The notes beneath the pieces are model-generated. The model saw only the letters and a program-made list of their open reading frames with translations, was not told the origin of the DNA and ran no database searches. Positions 15,920 to 24,341 of a DNA stretch of 61,289 bases are shown here, one piece after another (the first letter of the stretch is position 1; each line of letters opens with the position of its first letter). The stretch covers positions 1 to 61,289 of the forward strand of contig CAYUEG010000006.1 of assembly GCA_964443245.1 (NCBI GenBank), in the 5' to 3' direction. This DNA is from an uncultured Burkholderiales bacterium. GTDB taxonomy: Bacteria; Pseudomonadota; Gammaproteobacteria; Burkholderiales; JAEUOS01. A program made the translations under genes and the position numbers.

Positions 15920-18900
15920 ATGATCAAGCGCACTGTTTCGTTTGCCCTTCACCAGCCGCTGGTCATTTTCTTCGCCACGCTGCTGTTTGTGGGCGCGGGG
16001 TTGATCGCGTTCAAGAATCTCCCCGTAGAAGCATTTCCGGATGTGACCGATACCCAGGTCACGGTCATCACGCTCTTCCCCGGCCGAGCCGCCGAAGAAG
16101 TGGAAAAGCAGGTCACCATTCCGCTTGAAGTGGCCTTGTCCGGGTTGCCCAACGCGGTGCGCATGTTCTCGCACACCCAGTTTGGCCTCTCGTTCCTGAT
16201 CCTGACGTTCGACGACGATGCCAACGTCAACCTTGCTCGTCAGCAGGTTGGAGAGCGCCTGCGCAGCGTGCAATTGCCCCAGGGGGTGGAGCCGGACATT
16301 GCGCCTCTCTCGACCGCTATTGGTGAAGTCTATCGCTACCGCGTCAAGTCCGATACGCTCGACTCCAAAGAACTGCGCACCCTGGAAGATTGGGTGATCG
16401 AGCGTGCGCTGAAACGCGTGCCCGGCGTGGCGGACATCGTGCCCATGGGCGGCCTGATCAAGCAGTATGAGGTGCAGCCTGACATGGCCAAGCTGCGTGC
16501 CTTCAAACTGACGCTGCAGAACCTGCAGACCGCCCTGGAGCGGGGCAACAGCAACGCCGGTGGCGGTTATGTGGAGCAGGGCGGGCAGCAATACACGATC
16601 CGCGGCATTGGCCTGTTGCAGGATGCGTCGGACATCGACAGCATCGTCCTGGCAGAGCGCAACGGCACACCGGTGCTGGTGCGCGACGTGGCGCGCGTCG
16701 TGGTCGGGAACGTACCGCGCCAGGGCATCGTCGGACAGGACCTTGACGATGATGCCGTCACCGGCGTGGTGCTGATGCGCAAGGGCGAGAATCCCTCCAA
16801 GGTACTCAAGGAGGTAAAGGCCAGAGTGGAGGAGCTGAATCACGGCATCCTGCCGAAGGGGGTGCAGATCGTGCCCTTCTACGATCGCAGCTGGCTGATC
16901 GGCAAGACCCTCAACACCGTGTTCAAGAACCTGGTCGAAGGCGCACTGCTGGTCTCGATCGTGCTGTATCTGTTCCTGGCCAACTTCAGGGCGGCGGCCA
17001 TTGTGGCGTTGGTGATCCCACTTTCGCTGCTCTCCACCTTTGTCGGACTCACCTTTGTCGGCATCCCTGCCAATTTGCTCTCGCTGGGGGCGATGGATTT
17101 CGGCATCATCGTCGATGGTGCGGTGATTGTTGTGGAAAACGTCTTCCGGCGGCTTTCCATGGTCGACCAGTTCCATGATGACAAGGTAGATCGCAAGGAG
17201 GACCGCTACCGTCTGCACACCATCATCGAAGCGGCGGTCGAGGTGGGGCGCCCCACGCTGTTTTCGATGATCATCATCATCGCCGCGCATATCCCGATCT
17301 TCACCCTGCAGCGGCATGAGGGACGCATCTTCGCGCCGATGGCTTATTCGGTCACCTTTGCGCTGATCGGATCACTGATCCTGTCGCTGACGCTGGTGCC
17401 ACTGCTGTGCTACCAATGGCTCTCGAAGAACCTGCCCAGCCATGACAACCTCATCGTCGACTATTGCAAGCGGATTTACGCGCCGATCCTCAAATGGAGT
17501 CTGGCCCATCGGGTCAGGGTGATCGTGATCGCGCTGGTGGGGTTGACCGCCAGCTTTGCCGCCATACCTCGATTGGGTACCGAGTTCCTGCCGGAACTGA
17601 ATGAAGGTTCGCTCTGGCTCAATGTGAAACTGCCTTCGTCAGTTTCAGTTTCCGAGGCACAACGGGAGAACGGTCTGATCCGGCGCTTGCTGTTGCGTAC
17701 GCCGGAGGTGAACTCCGTGATCTCCAAGGCAGGGCGCCCGGAAGATGGTACCGATCCTAAGCTGATCAACATGGCCGAGTTCCTGGTGGACCTGAAGCCG
17801 GAGAACGAATGGAAGCGGGGTTTGAGCAAACGGCAGGTAATGGACGAGATGGAGCAGGCACTGCTCACGCTGCCGGCCATCAAACCCTCATTCTCCCAAC
17901 CCATCCGCGACAACATCCTCGAGAGCATTTCCCAGATCGATGGCCAGATTGTGATCAAGGTGTTCGGTGACGACATTCCGACACTGCGCAAGGTGGCTGA
18001 AGACGTGCTGGGTCAGGTCGGTGAAGTCAGGGGCGTCACGCGCGCGCTGATTGATCGCGTTGGTGAGCTGCCCAATTATCTGGTCAACATCGACCGTGCC
18101 CGAGCCGCACGTTATGGTCTGAATGTGGCTGACATACAGGATGTGATCGAGGCCGGCATCGGCGGGCGTGCGGCCAGCTATCTTTGGGAAGGCGAGCGCC
18201 GCTTTGCCATTGCGATCCGCATGAAGGAAGAGGAGCGTGGTCTTGAACGCATGAAGGGCGTTCTCCTGGCAACCAGCAGCGGTGCCTACATTCCCTTGTC
18301 GGAGGTGGCCACATTCAAGGCAGCTGCCGGCAGCATGAACATCGCACGCGAGAACGGTGGCCGCGTGATGGCGATCGGCATCTTCATTCGTGATCGTGAC
18401 ATGGGCAGCGTCGTGGCCGACATGCAGGCGGCGGTAAAGAGGAATGTCAGGCTGCCCGAGGGTTATCGCATTACGTGGTCGGGAGAGTTCGAGAACCAGG
18501 AGCGGGCGATGTCCCGCCTGGCACTGGTGGTGCCGATTTCCATTCTGCTGATCTTCGTGCTCCTGTTCAACGCCTTCAACTCGATCAAGAGCGCCGTGCT
18601 GATCATCCTTAATGTGCCTTTCGCCATGATTGGCGGCATTTTTGCGCTTCTGGTGACCGGCATTCCCCTGAGCGTCTCGGCGGCGATCGGTTTCATCGCA
18701 CTGTTTGGGCAGGCAGTATTGAATGGTGTGGTGATGGTGACGGTGTTCAACCAGCTGCGGAACGCCGGCGCGTCTCCGGAGCAAGCCGTGGTCGACGGCT
18801 CGATCCAGCGCCTGCGTACCGTTTTGATGACCGGGCTGTTGGCAATGCTGGGACTGTTGCCGATGGCGCTCTCTACCGACATCGGTTCTGAGACGCAAAA

Positions 18901-19081
18901 GCCGCTGGCGGTAGTGGTCATCGGCGGCCTCATCTCCGCCACGCTCCTGACGCTGATCGTGCTGCCGGTGCTCTACGTGGCGTTCAACACGCACCGTGTC
19001 TACTTCCGCCGCAAAGGCCGCGGCGACGCGAACTCGACGCAGAATGGGTCAGCGGTCGCCGGACCTGGGCCGAAGCCATGA
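15920..19081 (+). CDS. CusA/CzcA-family heavy-metal efflux RND transporter
   Basis: LPVEAFPDVTDTQV, MDFGIIVDGAVIVVEN (HME proton-relay D/D/E), GTEFLPELNEG, QKPLAVVVIGGLISATLLTL. Confidence 0.92.
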   Translation: MIKRTVSFALHQPLVIFFATLLFVGAGLIAFKNLPVEAFPDVTDTQVTVITLFPGRAAEEVEKQVTIPLEVALSGLPNAVRMFSHTQFGLSFLILTFDDDANVNLARQQVGERLRSVQLPQGVEPDIAPLSTAIGEVYRYRVKSDTLDSKELRTLEDWVIERALKRVPGVADIVPMGGLIKQYEVQPDMAKLRAFKLTLQNLQTALERGNSNAGGGYVEQGGQQYTIRGIGLLQDASDIDSIVLAERNGTPVLVRDVARVVVGNVPRQGIVGQDLDDDAVTGVVLMRKGENPSKVLKEVKARVEELNHGILPKGVQIVPFYDRSWLIGKTLNTVFKNLVEGALLVSIVLYLFLANFRAAAIVALVIPLSLLSTFVGLTFVGIPANLLSLGAMDFGIIVDGAVIVVENVFRRLSMVDQFHDDKVDRKEDRYRLHTIIEAAVEVGRPTLFSMIIIIAAHIPIFTLQRHEGRIFAPMAYSVTFALIGSLILSLTLVPLLCYQWLSKNLPSHDNLIVDYCKRIYAPILKWSLAHRVRVIVIALVGLTASFAAIPRLGTEFLPELNEGSLWLNVKLPSSVSVSEAQRENGLIRRLLLRTPEVNSVISKAGRPEDGTDPKLINMAEFLVDLKPENEWKRGLSKRQVMDEMEQALLTLPAIKPSFSQPIRDNILESISQIDGQIVIKVFGDDIPTLRKVAEDVLGQVGEVRGVTRALIDRVGELPNYLVNIDRARAARYGLNVADIQDVIEAGIGGRAASYLWEGERRFAIAIRMKEEERGLERMKGVLLATSSGAYIPLSEVATFKAAAGSMNIARENGGRVMAIGIFIRDRDMGSVVADMQAAVKRNVRLPEGYRITWSGEFENQERAMSRLALVVPISILLIFVLLFNAFNSIKSAVLIILNVPFAMIGGIFALLVTGIPLSVSAAIGFIALFGQAVLNGVVMVTVFNQLRNAGASPEQAVVDGSIQRLRTVLMTGLLAMLGLLPMALSTDIGSETQKPLAVVVIGGLISATLLTLIVLPVLYVAFNTHRVYFRRKGRGDANSTQNGSAVAGPGPKP

Positions 19082-19746
19082 TTCGCGCTGTCCTGTTTGA
19101 CCTCGATGGCACGCTGCTGCACACGTCGCCCGATCTGGCTGCCGCTGCCAGTGCGGCGTTGCATGAGTGCGGCCTGCCGCAGGTGGATGCAAAGCTGGTC
19201 GAATCGTTTGTCGGCAAAGGTATTGACGTTCTGGTGCAGCGCTGCTTGAAGCAGGTCGGGCATGCCCAGACCGGCCCGACCTTTGAAGCGCTGCGCGATG
19301 CCTACATGCGCTACTACGAGCAGAACAACGGCCGCTACGCCGCGCCCTACGATGGTGTGTTCGAAGGTCTGGAAGCCATGCGCCAGATGGGCCTGAATCT
19401 GGGCGTGTGCACCAACAAGTCGACGCGCTTTGCCGAACCATTGTTGGCGCGCTGCAACATGGCGCATTACTTCAGCGTGGTGGTGTGCGGCGATACCACG
19501 GCTTACAAGAAGCCTCACCCGGCGATGATCGAATATGCCGCAAAGCGTTGGGGGACAACGGTTTCCGACATTCTGTTCATCGGTGATTCGGGCAACGACA
19601 CGGCCGCGGCGCGCGCGGCCGGCTGCCCGGTCTGGGTGGTGCCCTACGGCTACAACGAGGGCCGTCCGGTGCAAACCCTGGACTGCGATGGTATAGTTTC
19701 GACGTTGCAGGAAGCGGCCCAACGGCTTCTTGCAGAGAACAGATAA
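19078..19746 (+). CDS. gph: Phosphoglycolate phosphatase
   Basis: HAD motif DLDGT, TNK, KKPHP, IGDS.ND, VPYGYN. Sits directly before trpE. Confidence 0.9.
   Translation: MIRAVLFDLDGTLLHTSPDLAAAASAALHECGLPQVDAKLVESFVGKGIDVLVQRCLKQVGHAQTGPTFEALRDAYMRYYEQNNGRYAAPYDGVFEGLEAMRQMGLNLGVCTNKSTRFAEPLLARCNMAHYFSVVVCGDTTAYKKPHPAMIEYAAKRWGTTVSDILFIGDSGNDTAAARAAGCPVWVVPYGYNEGRPVQTLDCDGIVSTLQEAAQRLLAENR
19669..19697 (+). promoter_or_regulatory. Candidate sigma70 promoter of the trp operon inside the 3' end of gph
   Basis: GTGCAA-N17-TATAGT, 71 nt upstream of the leader-peptide ATG. Confidence 0.45.
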
Positions 19747-19768
19747 GCGCCATCAAGCATTCCGTCCA

Positions 19769-19852
19769 ATGAACCTGACGAACAAACATCGTGTGTGGAG
19801 CGCCGCTCCGGGGGCATGGCCCTGGCGCCCTGCGGAGATCTCGCGCGGCTGA
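19769..19852 (+). CDS. Putative trp leader peptide, 27 aa MNLTNKHRVWSAAPGAWPWRPAEISRG
   Basis: Manual translation, below the ORF-track cutoff. Three TGG codons (W10, W17, W19) in the gph-trpE gap. Confidence 0.75.
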   Translation: MNLTNKHRVWSAAPGAWPWRPAEISRG

Positions 19853-19868
19853 AAAAGCCCGCCCGTCC

Positions 19869-19910
19869 CGCCGGATCAGCAATCCCGGCGCCTGATGTTG
19901 TTTGACTTTC
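19869..19910 (+). terminator. Candidate attenuator hairpin before trpE
   Basis: CGCCGGAT-CAGCA-ATCCCGGCG stem with one bulge, followed by a broken U-rich run CCTGATGTTGTTTGACTTTC. Confidence 0.4.
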
Positions 19911-19921
19911 AAGGTTCGATC

Positions 19922-21487
19922 ATGACTCCGCAGCAATTCGACGCGCTCGCAGAGCGCGGCTATAACCGCATTCCCCTGGTGCTCGAGACCTTTGCCGATC
20001 TCGATACCCCCCTTTCGATCTATCTGAAGCTGGCCAATCGGCCCTACACCTACCTGCTGGAGTCCGTGCAAGGGGGCGAGCGCTTTGGCCGTTATTCGTT
20101 CATTGGCTTGCCGTGCCAGACGCGCATCGTGGTGCGTGGCGACGTTACGCAAGTGGTGCACGGCGAGACGGTGGCCGAGCAGTCCACCGGGGCCAATCCG
20201 CTCGATTTCATCCGCACCTACATGCGGCGCTTCAAGGTGGCGCCACTGCCCGGTCTGCCCCGGTTTGCGGGTGGTCTGGTTGGCGCCTTCGGGTATGACT
20301 GTGTCCGCTATGTCGAACCCCGCCTGGACAAATTCATTCGTCGCCGCCCGCAGAAGCCGGATCCGATCGGGGCGCCGGACATCGTGCTGTTGCAGAGTGA
20401 AGAAGTGGCGATTGTCGACAATCTGGCCGGCAAGCTCTACCTGGTGGTGTATGCGGATCCGCGCAATCCGGGCAGCTATGCCTACGGGCAGGAGCGCCTG
20501 CGGCAGTTGCTGGCACTGCTGCGCGAGCCGGCCGACATTCCCGACCATGCGCCGGCCGTGGCCCATGTGGCGCAGTCCAACTTCGGCGAGGCGAGCTACC
20601 TGGAAGCCGTGGCGCGCTCCAAGCAATACATCCTTGATGGCGACGTGATGCAGGTGCAGCTTGGCCAGCGCCTGACAAGGCGTTTTGATGCCGAACCGCT
20701 GGCGCTGTACCGGGCGTTGCGTACGCTCAACCCGTCGCCCTACATGTTCTATTTCAATTTTCGCGAGTTTCATGTGGTGGCCGCCTCGCCGGAAATTCTG
20801 GTTCGCGTGGAACCCGAATCGCCCGAGGCAGCCGCTGCCGAAGGCGGCGGAGGCAGCAAGCGCGTGACCATCCGTCCGCTTGCCGGCACGCGCAAGCGCG
20901 GCGCCACGCCGGAAGAGGACAAGGCGCTCGCGGCGGAACTCCTGGCTGACCCCAAGGAGCGCGCGGAACATGTGATGCTGATCGATCTGGGCCGCAACGA
21001 TCTGGGCCGGATTGCCGAGATTGGCAGTGTGAAGGTGACGGACACGATGGTGATCGAGCGCTATTCGCACGTGATGCATATCGTGTCGAACGTCGAAGCG
21101 CGCCTCAAACCGGGCCTGGATGCCATCGACGTCTTCAAGGCGTCGTTTCCCGCCGGCACATTGACGGGCGCACCCAAGGTGCGGGCGATGGAGATCATCG
21201 AGGAACTGGAGCCGGTCAAACGCGGCATTTACGGCGGTGCTGCCGGCTACCTGGGCTTTCATGGCGACATGGACCTGGCCATTACCATTCGCACCGGCGT
21301 GATCAAGGATGGCCTGCTGCATGTACAGGCGGCAGCCGGCATTGTTGCCGATTCAGTACCGGAAGCCGAATGGAACGAGACCCGTATCAAGGCGCAGGCG
21401 GTGTTGCGCGCGGCAGAAATGGCCACAGCGGGTCTGGATACCAAGAGCGGGTCGCGTGCGGCGCCAGCGGCGGGAGGCAAGCCATGA
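19922..21487 (+). CDS. trpE: Anthranilate synthase component I
   Basis: [77 protein letters not shown]. Confidence 0.97.
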
Positions 21488-22056
21488 TCCTGATGATCGA
21501 CAACTACGATTCGTTCACCTGGAATCTGGTGCAGTACTTCGGTGAGCTGGGTGCCGACATGAAGGTCGTCCTCAATGATGAACTGACGGTGGCCGACGTG
21601 GCGGCCATGCGCCCCGAGAAGATTGTGGTGTCTCCCGGGCCTTGTTCGCCGAACGAAGCCGGCATTTCACTGGAGGCGATCACCACCTTTGCCGGCAAGC
21701 TGCCGATTCTCGGCGTATGCCTGGGACACCAGGCCATTGGTCAGGCCTTTGGTGGCAAGGTGGTACACGCCAAGACCCTGATGCATGGCAAGACAGCGCC
21801 GGTCGAGCACACCAGCCAAGGCGTTTTTGCCGGCTTGCCCTCGCCGTTTACTGCCACGCGCTATCACTCGCTGGCGGTGGAGCGCGCCAGCCTGCCAGAC
21901 TGCCTTGAAGTGACCGCCTGGACGGCCGACGGCGAGATCATGGGCGTCAAGCACAGGACCCTGCCGATCGAAGGCGTACAGTTTCACCCTGAATCGATAC
22001 TGACCGAGCATGGCCATCAGATGCTGAAGAATTTTCTACAAGGAGAGAACCCATGA
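21484..22056 (+). CDS. trpG: Anthranilate synthase component II (glutamine amidotransferase)
   Basis: [39 protein letters not shown]. Confidence 0.96.
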
Positions 22057-23870: not shown

Positions 23871-23894
23871 TCCCGCAGTCCTTTGGGAGGATCT

Positions 23895-24341
23895 ATGGCC
23901 GCAAAACAGCATGGATACTGGCTCGCAGCCTTCATCGGCCTGACAGCCTTGTGCACCAACGCTTTCGGGCAATTGCCCCAGGTGAAAACCCAGGGCGTCG
24001 TGAGTTACGTTTCCGGTGGGATTGGTGACGACGAAGAGGCCGCCATCCGCGGTGCCGCCAAGGAGTATGGCGTGCTACTGGAATTCACCGAGGTCGAGCG
24101 CGGCACGTCCCACGGCCGCTGGACTGCGGATGTCGGCATCAGCATCAGGGCCGGCAACGAAGTCGTCCTGAACGCCCGCTCCGACGGGCCGCTGATGCTG
24201 GTCAAGCTGAAGCCCGGCAGTTATGTGGCCGAGGCGGACCGCCAGGGCGCAAAGCTCACCAAGCGGCTGGAGGTCAAGGCCAACGCCGTGGCGCGCGAGC
24301 GCTTCTTCTGGATCGTCGAAGGGCCGCTTACGCCACGCTAG
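23895..24341 (+). CDS. Exported hypothetical protein (carboxypeptidase-regulatory/transthyretin-like fold suspected)
   Basis: RBS GGAGGA and signal peptide. YVSGGIGDDEE...GPLMLVKLKPGSY pattern is common in exported betaproteobacterial proteins. Confidence 0.7.
   Translation: MAAKQHGYWLAAFIGLTALCTNAFGQLPQVKTQGVVSYVSGGIGDDEEAAIRGAAKEYGVLLEFTEVERGTSHGRWTADVGISIRAGNEVVLNARSDGPLMLVKLKPGSYVAEADRQGAKLTKRLEVKANAVARERFFWIVEGPLTPR

Follow-up and report, generated by a model that had tools for sequence, protein, structure and literature searches.

A conserved tryptophan leader upstream of trpEGDC in an uncultured Burkholderiales bacterium and its predicted pairing with the trpE Shine-Dalgarno sequence

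The interval between gph and trpE in an uncultured Burkholderiales bacterium (positions 19769-19921 of the 61,289-nt, 63% GC stretch of DNA analyzed here, hereafter the window) encodes a short tryptophan (Trp)-rich leader peptide, and the Shine-Dalgarno (SD) sequence of trpE sits in a predicted, covariation-supported helix, the other strand of which is formed by the first codons of the leader open reading frame (ORF). We read these features as a Trp-sensing leader that acts mainly on the initiation of trpE translation, possibly together with Rho-dependent polarity; this reading has, in our estimate, a probability of about one half, and the direction and kinetics of the response are what we infer. 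The locus has the traits of a leader-peptide regulator, namely, the ORF, its position and the conserved cognate codons, but is without a canonical intrinsic terminator. The initial annotation of this DNA had correctly placed the 27-codon ORF with its three Trp codons, the 69-nt gap before trpE, two small hairpins and a GC stem. Its suggestion that the leader might act on trpE translation now gains sequence support from the covarying helix over the trpE SD, with the mechanism itself put forward below in conditional terms. The principal features are as follows.

Positions 19769..19852, forward strand: leader ORF (trpL-like) of 27 codons, MNLTNKHRVWSAAPGAWPWRPAEISRG, from ATG 19769 to TGA 19850-52, with the frame kept in relatives.

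Positions 19771..19791, forward strand: S1, the 5' strand of the closing helix, within leader codons 1-8, delineated by minimum free energy (MFE) folding, RNAalifold and duplex energy.

Positions 19893..19917, forward strand: S4, the 3' strand of the closing helix, consisting of the U/G-rich tail UGAUGUUGUUUG (19893-19904), UC (19909-10) and AGGUUC (19912-17).

Positions 19922..21487, forward strand: trpE, anthranilate synthase component I, the first gene of trpEGDC (NCBIfam TIGR00564, 537 bits).

In the MFE fold of the window, a total of 20 base pairs (bp) enclose the whole leader. The anti-SD sequence GAACCU (19771-76, codons 1-3) pairs with AGGUUC (19912-17), which overlaps the trpE SD, AAGG (19911-14), and the helix continues inward with GA (19777-78) paired to UC (19909-10), CGAACAA (19779-85) paired to UUGUUUG (19898-19904), and CAUCG (19787-91) paired to UGAUG (19893-97). 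This closing helix spans approximately 120 nt and encloses three hairpins, and the predicted cost of opening the trpE ribosome-binding site (RBS) in the window is about 13 kcal/mol.

Relatives of the locus were collected in several ways. A TrpE-guided scan with one genome per species yielded 80 loci, the nearest of which belong to uncultured Burkholderiales (TrpE identity of 77% and 73%), and nearer relatives were recovered by a protein search combined with contig look-ups (full-length TrpE identity of 83-90%, with two at 77-79%). The resulting close clade, with TrpE identities of about 75-90%, comprises 13 distinct leaders and, together with its sister clade, 20 loci. In addition, a metagenome exact-pattern scan for the nucleotide motif encoding Trp-Pro-Trp (WPW) returned 120 matches, of which 76 lie immediately 5' of a trpE.

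The closing helix is present in the MFE folds of 19 of the 20 clade leaders and in the RNAalifold consensus of subclade a, the closest one. The energy of the window duplex is -26.0 kcal/mol, compared to -13.9 ± 2.9 kcal/mol for shuffled 5' strands, and none of the 200 shuffles is as good; furthermore, a 5' strand combined with 3' strands from within its subclade pairs well, whereas exchange of strands between subclades gives poor pairing. When 13 leaders are aligned without gaps, 83% of the cells of the S1b:S4a helix are paired, as opposed to 32-50% when the partner is slid by 1-3 columns. Seven of the 13 pairs change on both sides (e.g., A-U/A-U in the window vs U-A/G-C in subclades b-d), and the covariation score is 0.321 compared to 0.192 ± 0.025 for shuffles, of which 0 of 500 score as high. 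Most directly, the anti-SD and the SD change together: GAACCU:AGGUUC in the window, GAAUUGCCUGAA:UUCAGGUGAUUC in subclade b, and GCUCCAC:GUGGAGC in the sister clade. The first duplex test, run on the whole dataset, was not significant (p of about 0.09) because the large group of leaders that start with MFIHR (described below) has long spacers; only the window clade and its sister clade show the duplex signal. Taken together, these results place the trpE SD within a predicted helix that is supported by covariation.

The leader peptide is best assessed at its Trp codons (W10 at 19796-98, W17 at 19817-19 and W19 at 19823-25), which fall into two features.

Positions 19796..19798, forward strand: Trp codon W10, specific to the window clade and found in 12 of its 13 distinct leaders.

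Positions 19817..19825, forward strand: TGG CCC TGG, encoding W17-P18-W19, the core of the family motif (G/E)AWPWR, invariant in all betaproteobacterial WPW leaders.

On the evidence of the window alone, three Trp codons are not beyond chance, given that at least three are found in 34 of the 392 ATG-initiated ORFs of 20-40 codons in this DNA, and W-x-W in 20 of the 392; the significance comes from conservation. The fold of the whole leader, similarly, is no better than that of shuffled sequences (z = -0.68). The gene order gph-leader-trpE is shared by all 13 distinct close relatives, and the weight that the initial annotation gave to the Trp codons is borne out in these gph-trpE gaps, with W17 and W19 present in 13/13 leaders and W10 in 12/13, the exception being L001, which has Arg (CGG) in place of W10. 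Accordingly, the core WSAAPGAWPWR is common to 12 of the 13. Codons 10-20 of the close clade contain six variable sites; five of these are third positions with synonymous changes, and second positions never vary. Past WPWR, the peptide varies in sequence and in length, the tail being 1-10 codons long in the close clade and as long as 16 codons among the wider set of leaders. Synonymous variation combined with an invariant core indicates a translated frame the core of which is under selection, so that the ORF is, as judged from these comparisons, a genuine conserved Trp leader peptide that is presumably translated. W10 sits nine codons from the start throughout the clade, except in L087 and L090, and lies 4 nt past the 5' strand of the long-range helix in 12 of the 13 clade leaders. 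Of the 95 unique leaders, 66 have the first Trp of WPW at codon 17, a fixed spacing of 16 codons from the start that is kept despite group-specific N-termini. A TTG at 19730 was considered as an upstream start of the leader and rejected because it falls within gph.

An alternative is that the ORF is not translated and that the conserved entity is an RNA structure, such as a protein- or ligand-binding leader, in which the Trp codons are incidental. No SD precedes the leader ATG, two relatives have TTG as the start, chance alone yields many small Trp-rich ORFs in DNA this rich in GC, and the nucleotide motif GCNTGGCCCTGGCG is highly conserved, including an invariant CCC, all of which would fit an untranslated element. 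Nevertheless, every relative retains the frame, the start and a stop, even though the ORF diverges in both sequence and length towards its 3' end, and the variable sites are synonymous third positions; other lineages again have Trp-rich peptides before trpE (WRWRA, DWRWQSWR, SWRRSWRG), and the Pseudomonas counterpart is translated. Moreover, no Rfam family matches: a search with the leader yields no hits at E ≤ 10, including Trp_leader (RF00513), and searches of 10 related loci yield none but tRNA at the gathering score. We consider an untranslated ORF highly improbable.

Between the first Trp codon and the 3' strand of the closing helix, several hairpins are predicted.

Positions 19797-19809 (GGAGC/GCTCC) and 19811/12-19822/23 (GGGC/GCCC, 19812-19822), forward strand: two small hairpins internal to the ORF, found by folding.

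Positions 19832..19871, forward strand: hairpin H3 of the MFE fold, the loop of which contains or adjoins the leader stop (19850-52); it shares 3 nt with the 5' arm of hairpin T.

Positions 19869..19890, forward strand: GC hairpin T (CGCCGG...CCGGCG), terminator-like, followed by CCUGAUGUUGUUUGAC.

The two small hairpins over the Trp codons, to which the initial annotation had drawn attention, have stems that are invariant in the close clade and accordingly provide no covariation evidence, and the GGGC/GCCC stem is broken in subclade d (GGGAGCC) with the peptide kept. The inner helix of H3 is kept in subclade a with two compensatory pairs, and its sequence is not conserved beyond this subclade, whereas the T stem is kept by compensatory changes in relatives. 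No canonical terminator was detected between the leader and trpE by either a consensus scan or our own scan; T fails both, the first 9 nt after its stem being CCUGAUGUU, in agreement with the earlier description of a non-canonical terminator. The broken U tract is not, however, the distinctive trait that it had been taken for but the rule of the family, given that the canonical scan is passed by only 12 of the 95 unique betaproteobacterial leaders and 8 of the 42 gammaproteobacterial loci, and by 0 of the 9 individually listed gammaproteobacterial loci with a WRW-type leader.

These hairpins are central to the alternative of classical ribosome-mediated transcription attenuation, in which T and the U/G-rich tail would form a weak intrinsic terminator, H3 and a GGCGCC pairing (19824-29 with 19887-92) would serve as ribosome-dependent antiterminators, and the closing helix would be secondary. 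The layout is the one expected, with a leader, a hairpin at the stop codon, a GC hairpin, a U-rich tract and the gene in this order, and the compensatory changes in the T stem, as well as the overlap of both T arms with H3 and the GGCGCC pairing in the window, are in line with such a device. Subclade b has T followed by UUUUGAUGCAGUUUUGUUUUUC, and the best, real-looking terminator candidates elsewhere in the window have similarly short, broken U tracts; besides, the literature calls the Pseudomonas relatives attenuators. The failure of T in the terminator scans and the sequence that follows its stem speak against this alternative, as does the fold model, in which the nascent RNA ends at the 3' end of T and ribosome footprints are placed at W10, W17, W19 or the stop. 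In this model, the probability of T is 0.77-0.90 at every ribosome position in the window and is similarly independent of position in most relatives, so that no conserved switch is apparent. Only when the RNA is given 2 extra 3' nt does the probability of T rise from 0.02 to 0.9 with the advancing ribosome. On this thermodynamic modeling, a ribosome-controlled switch between T and an antiterminator was therefore rejected as a conserved feature, because it depends on the 3' end chosen, is gone when the RNA ends exactly at the 3' end of T, and is not conserved. Furthermore, a stall at W17/W19 would favor T, which is the wrong direction. Classical attenuation appears doubtful as the primary mechanism here.

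Under the preferred reading, control of trpE translation, events would unfold as follows. Transcription would start from a TGnTATAGT box in the end of gph, and a pioneer ribosome would translate the SD-less leader once, co-transcriptionally; because the helix buries both the trpE RBS and the start of the leader itself, escape would be solely co-transcriptional. With ample charged tRNA-Trp, the ribosome would run to the stop at 19850 and depart before the 3' strand is made, whereupon leader codons 1-8 would be free to pair with the trpE tail and SD as these emerge, and trpE would remain untranslated; its untranslated, C-rich start may then let Rho stop transcription. With scarce charged tRNA-Trp, the ribosome would wait at W10 on the 5' strand of the helix, leaving the trpE site open for expression of trpEGDC. 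On geometry alone, a ribosome with W10 in the A site and a footprint from P-12 to P+15 (19781-19808) is predicted to cover the 5' strand and to abut the anti-SD. Alternatively, a second ribosome might queue behind one stalled at W17/W19 and cover the 5' strand, which would produce the same effect in leaders that lack W10; the fixed 16-codon distance from the start to WPW leaves room, again in terms of geometry, for one queued ribosome over codons 2-11. In this scheme, hairpin T with the U/G-rich tail would be at most a weak terminator or a pause site.

Several observations weigh against this mechanism. In subclades c and d, as well as in the leaders L003, L066 and L014, the anti-SD:SD pairing falls short of significance. 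Folding with a ribosome mask at W10, W17 and W19, which the initial annotation had recommended, gave small effects that tip the balance neither way: the footprints cut the cost of opening the RBS by only about 2 kcal/mol in the window (equilibrium models 1-4) and inconsistently in relatives, and the masks reveal no conserved T switch. The helix strand is left uncovered by a ribosome that stalls at W17/W19, the Trp codons found throughout the family, no counterpart of W10 exists in the sister clade, and the Pseudomonas anti-SD is located 5' of the leader ORF, so that the model needs either ribosome queuing or kinetics. The leader has no SD of its own, and its translation is presumed. With regard to the missing terminator, the whole window contains 15 terminator-like sites compared to 11.4 ± 3.5 in shuffled sequences, so that their absence at the leader is weak evidence, and subclade b has a good U tract (UUUUGUUUUUC) past the helix strand, which fits termination equally well.

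The Rho component of this scheme could also be primary. Under Rho-dependent attenuation, Rho would load on ribosome-free, C-rich RNA past the leader stop or at the trpE start and would terminate transcription within or before trpE. This possibility accords with the lack of a canonical intrinsic terminator and with base composition: the spacer is 33% C and 25% G, the first 150 nt of trpE are 36% C and 23% G, and the segment 19900-20049 has the strongest excess of C over G (skew of -0.21) in the region 19000-22000, with the same bias in 20/20 relatives. The 69-nt spacer is, however, short and predicted to be highly structured, and the composition of the trpE start may simply mirror the conserved protein sequence. 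We regard Rho-dependent attenuation as unlikely to be the primary mechanism; it is compatible with translational control and may be a downstream consequence thereof.

The codon between W17 and W19 raises a different possibility. The Pro codon of WPW is CCC in 20/20 leaders that were found without the motif as bait, whereas all four synonyms occur among the flanking Ala and Arg codons, and the window genes use CCG more often than CCC for Pro. A CCC codon followed by U has been documented as prone to +1 slippage (PMC7577736), and in the WPW leaders CCC-U (19820-19823 in the window) precedes a potentially hungry UGG. UGG-CCC-UGG could conceivably be a recoding or arrest device, i.e., an amino-acid sensor that employs hungry-codon +1 frameshifting or an arrest peptide tuned to the ribosomal tunnel, although we consider this quite improbable. 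In the former case, a +1 slip would bypass the Trp codon and the zero-frame stop, the ribosome would read through H3 and T, and termination at UGA 19893-95, before the trpE RBS, would open the helix and couple to trpE initiation. In the latter case, the fixed 16-codon spacing (66/95) and the invariant peptide would reflect tuning to the exit tunnel. In the window, the +1 frame indeed extends as far as UGA 19893-95, and 17 of the 20 leaders keep this frame open almost up to the trpE start. Against frameshifting, this frame is closed after 5 codons in subclade b; the -1 frame is also open, in 10 of the 20 leaders, such that openness of the +1 frame is not clearly commoner; pairing with the upstream GGG can account for CCC; and the Pseudomonas WRW leaders have no slippery codon.

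The control region extends upstream into gph, where a candidate promoter is located.

Positions 19689..19697, forward strand: extended -10 box TGGTATAGT, a probable promoter within the 3' end of gph, recognized as a conserved box in the clade.

The sequence TG(G/C)TATAGT lies inside the end of gph in 20/20 loci (window clade plus sister clade), at a distance of 45-109 nt from the leader start. The box uses the Ile codon ATA, which accounts for 4 of approximately 165 Ile codons in the window genes, and the same box is found in L002, where the upstream sequence does not resemble the 3' end of gph. A simple sigma-70 scan, which needs a -35 box, found nothing. The TGnTATAGT box probably is the promoter, which would put the transcription start near 19704. 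A 31-nt hairpin (UUGCAGGAAGC...GCUUCUUGCAG) at 19705-19735, in the last gph codons, would form the 5' end of a transcript that starts from this box.

The genes around the leader are arranged in the order CusA/CzcA-type RND permease, gph, trpE, trpG, trpD, trpC.

Positions 19078-19746, forward strand: gph, directly before the leader ORF.

The trpE start at 19922, 69 nt past the leader stop, is fixed by the TrpE N-terminus MTPQ(Q/E)FDAL that is conserved in relatives. An in-frame ATG at 19895, 27 nt upstream of 19922, was rejected as the start because it is not conserved in relatives; this ATG leads ORF callers to a 530-aa trpE product, and database homologues are called at 505-573 aa. The stop of the RND permease ORF (15920-19081) overlaps the gph start (ATGA, 19078-19081), and the gene located 5' of gph differs among relatives (ACR_tran, Uma2, an FAD oxidoreductase or ShlB). 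Right after trpC, a 152-aa ORF (23883-24341) has no NCBIfam match. A sub-threshold match to the Rfam family AsdA within gph (19235-19284; 29.6 bits vs the gathering threshold of 52, E = 0.0011) was taken as chance.

Beyond the close clade, the same genomic position is occupied by a diverse family of Trp-rich leaders. In remoter Betaproteobacteria, the leaders contain (G/E)AWPWR or are Trp-rich in another form (ETWGLWRSWRRWRR, SSWPVLSWRRSWRG, DWRWQSWR), Pseudomonas loci carry MKVIKALARWRWRA, and other Gammaproteobacteria have peptides of the form ...SWRWRH. Most of the metagenome WPW matches belong to a large group of the form MFIHRxxxTGxxDRGAWPWR. By this comparison, W-x-W followed by Arg is the norm of the gph-trpE leader family, including the Pseudomonas trpL1, so that the spacing of the Trp codons, previously thought to mark a variant, is a family rule, and only W10 is specific to the window clade. 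The window motif AWPWRP and the Pseudomonas motif RWRWRA are both found between gph and trpE, and intermediate motifs (WRSWRRWRR, SWRRSWRG, DWRWQSWR) exist; these peptides are too short to test common descent, and convergence is possible. The MFIHR group (L093-L210, e.g., L103, L110, L118, L136, L196 and L205) consists of Burkholderiales trpE leaders, in which 6-9 nt separate the end of a -10-like box (TAcACT/TATAAA) from the ATG; the leader ORF thus appears to be leaderless. In about 20 of 64 of these loci, an AUGAAC-type box that is complementary to the 5' end is located 35-60 nt before trpE, a frequency that is not significant compared to shuffles. In L084 and L085, an insertion of about 50 nt with GGAAAGCC-like repeats separates the leader stop from hairpin T; it is absent from the window and the other relatives.

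The closest characterized system is the Pseudomonas trpE leader, trpL1. Like the leader described here, it is located between gph and trpE (in P. aeruginosa PA14 as well as in P. putida), encodes an ORF that ends with W-x-W-R-x approximately 70 nt before trpE, has no canonical terminator, and contains a 5' segment that pairs with the trpE SD. The differences are that the Pseudomonas leader has 14 codons and the motif RWRWRA, whereas the window leader has 27 codons, AWPWRP and a third, upstream Trp; that the anti-SD lies in the 5' untranslated region (UTR) in Pseudomonas but inside the ORF in the window; and that Pseudomonas keeps trpGDC in a separate operon, itself preceded by a leader, whereas trpEGDC are together in the window. 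In P. aeruginosa, trpL1 reporter fusions are translated, and Trp-to-Ala changes of the W10 and W12 codons reverse the up-regulation of trpE in a miaA mutant (PMC13434334). Among the loci of Pseudomonas and other Gammaproteobacteria (L021-L065), the trpE SD, (C/G)CCACGAGG, finds its partner in the 5' UTR, in the sequence CC(A)UCGUGG(U/C)GG that precedes the WRWRA leader, and in L032/L054, L059 and L052 a 5' segment pairs with the trpE SD via different sequences.

The leader of the Escherichia coli trp operon contains tandem WW codons, switches among the 1:2, 2:3 and 3:4 pairings, and ends in a strong terminator with a long U run. The window leader resembles E. coli trpL (RF00513) in being a short ORF with Trp codons before trpE, through which the E. 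coli leader senses charged tRNA-Trp by ribosome stalling, but differs in having no Rfam match, no canonical terminator and no conserved switch, and in possessing a long-range helix that sequesters the SD. In the translational attenuation of ermC and cat, and in the coat-replicase coupling of phage MS2, an RBS is hidden by an upstream translated segment, and a ribosome on that segment opens it; these systems sense antibiotics or couple two genes, whereas the stall signal in the window would be scarcity of charged tRNA-Trp. The trpL of Sinorhizobium meliloti is another Trp-codon leader ORF before trpE(G); its peptide (peTrpL, 14 aa) and the attenuator RNA rnTrpL, which is released upon termination, are reported to act in trans as well. 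A trans role for the window peptide is no more than hinted at by its unusually conserved sequence. In the actinobacterial LEU element of leuA, a candidate leader peptide is embedded in a compact structure, the base stem of which pairs part of the leader ORF with the leuA SD, and there is no terminator; the regulatory Leu codons themselves pair with the SD, a pseudoknot has been proposed, and Seliverstov et al. (2005, PMC1262725) were skeptical of a leader-peptide mechanism. The LEU element is the closest architectural analogue of the window leader, in which it is instead the first codons of the ORF that pair with the SD, with W10 adjoining.

Leader-peptide attenuation is known mainly from enterobacteria, in the form of tandem codons followed by a strong terminator, and earlier comparative surveys exist, which may already list betaproteobacterial trpE leaders. 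The locus described here and about 100 relatives indicate that the trpE leaders of Burkholderiales are mostly without such a terminator, as apparently are those of the Pseudomonas type; instead, these leaders appear to share a 5' segment that pairs with the trpE RBS, with compensatory changes between lineages. Because the family is not represented in Rfam, genome annotation misses these leaders, and gene callers mis-start trpE. If the helix is indeed the output stage, Trp control in these large, GC-rich groups of bacteria would be primarily translational, perhaps made transcriptional by Rho. The pairing of the 5' UTR with the SD in Pseudomonas may matter for the interpretation of trpE 'attenuation' in that genus, and, with the helix as the output stage, the reports of such attenuation would need to be re-read.

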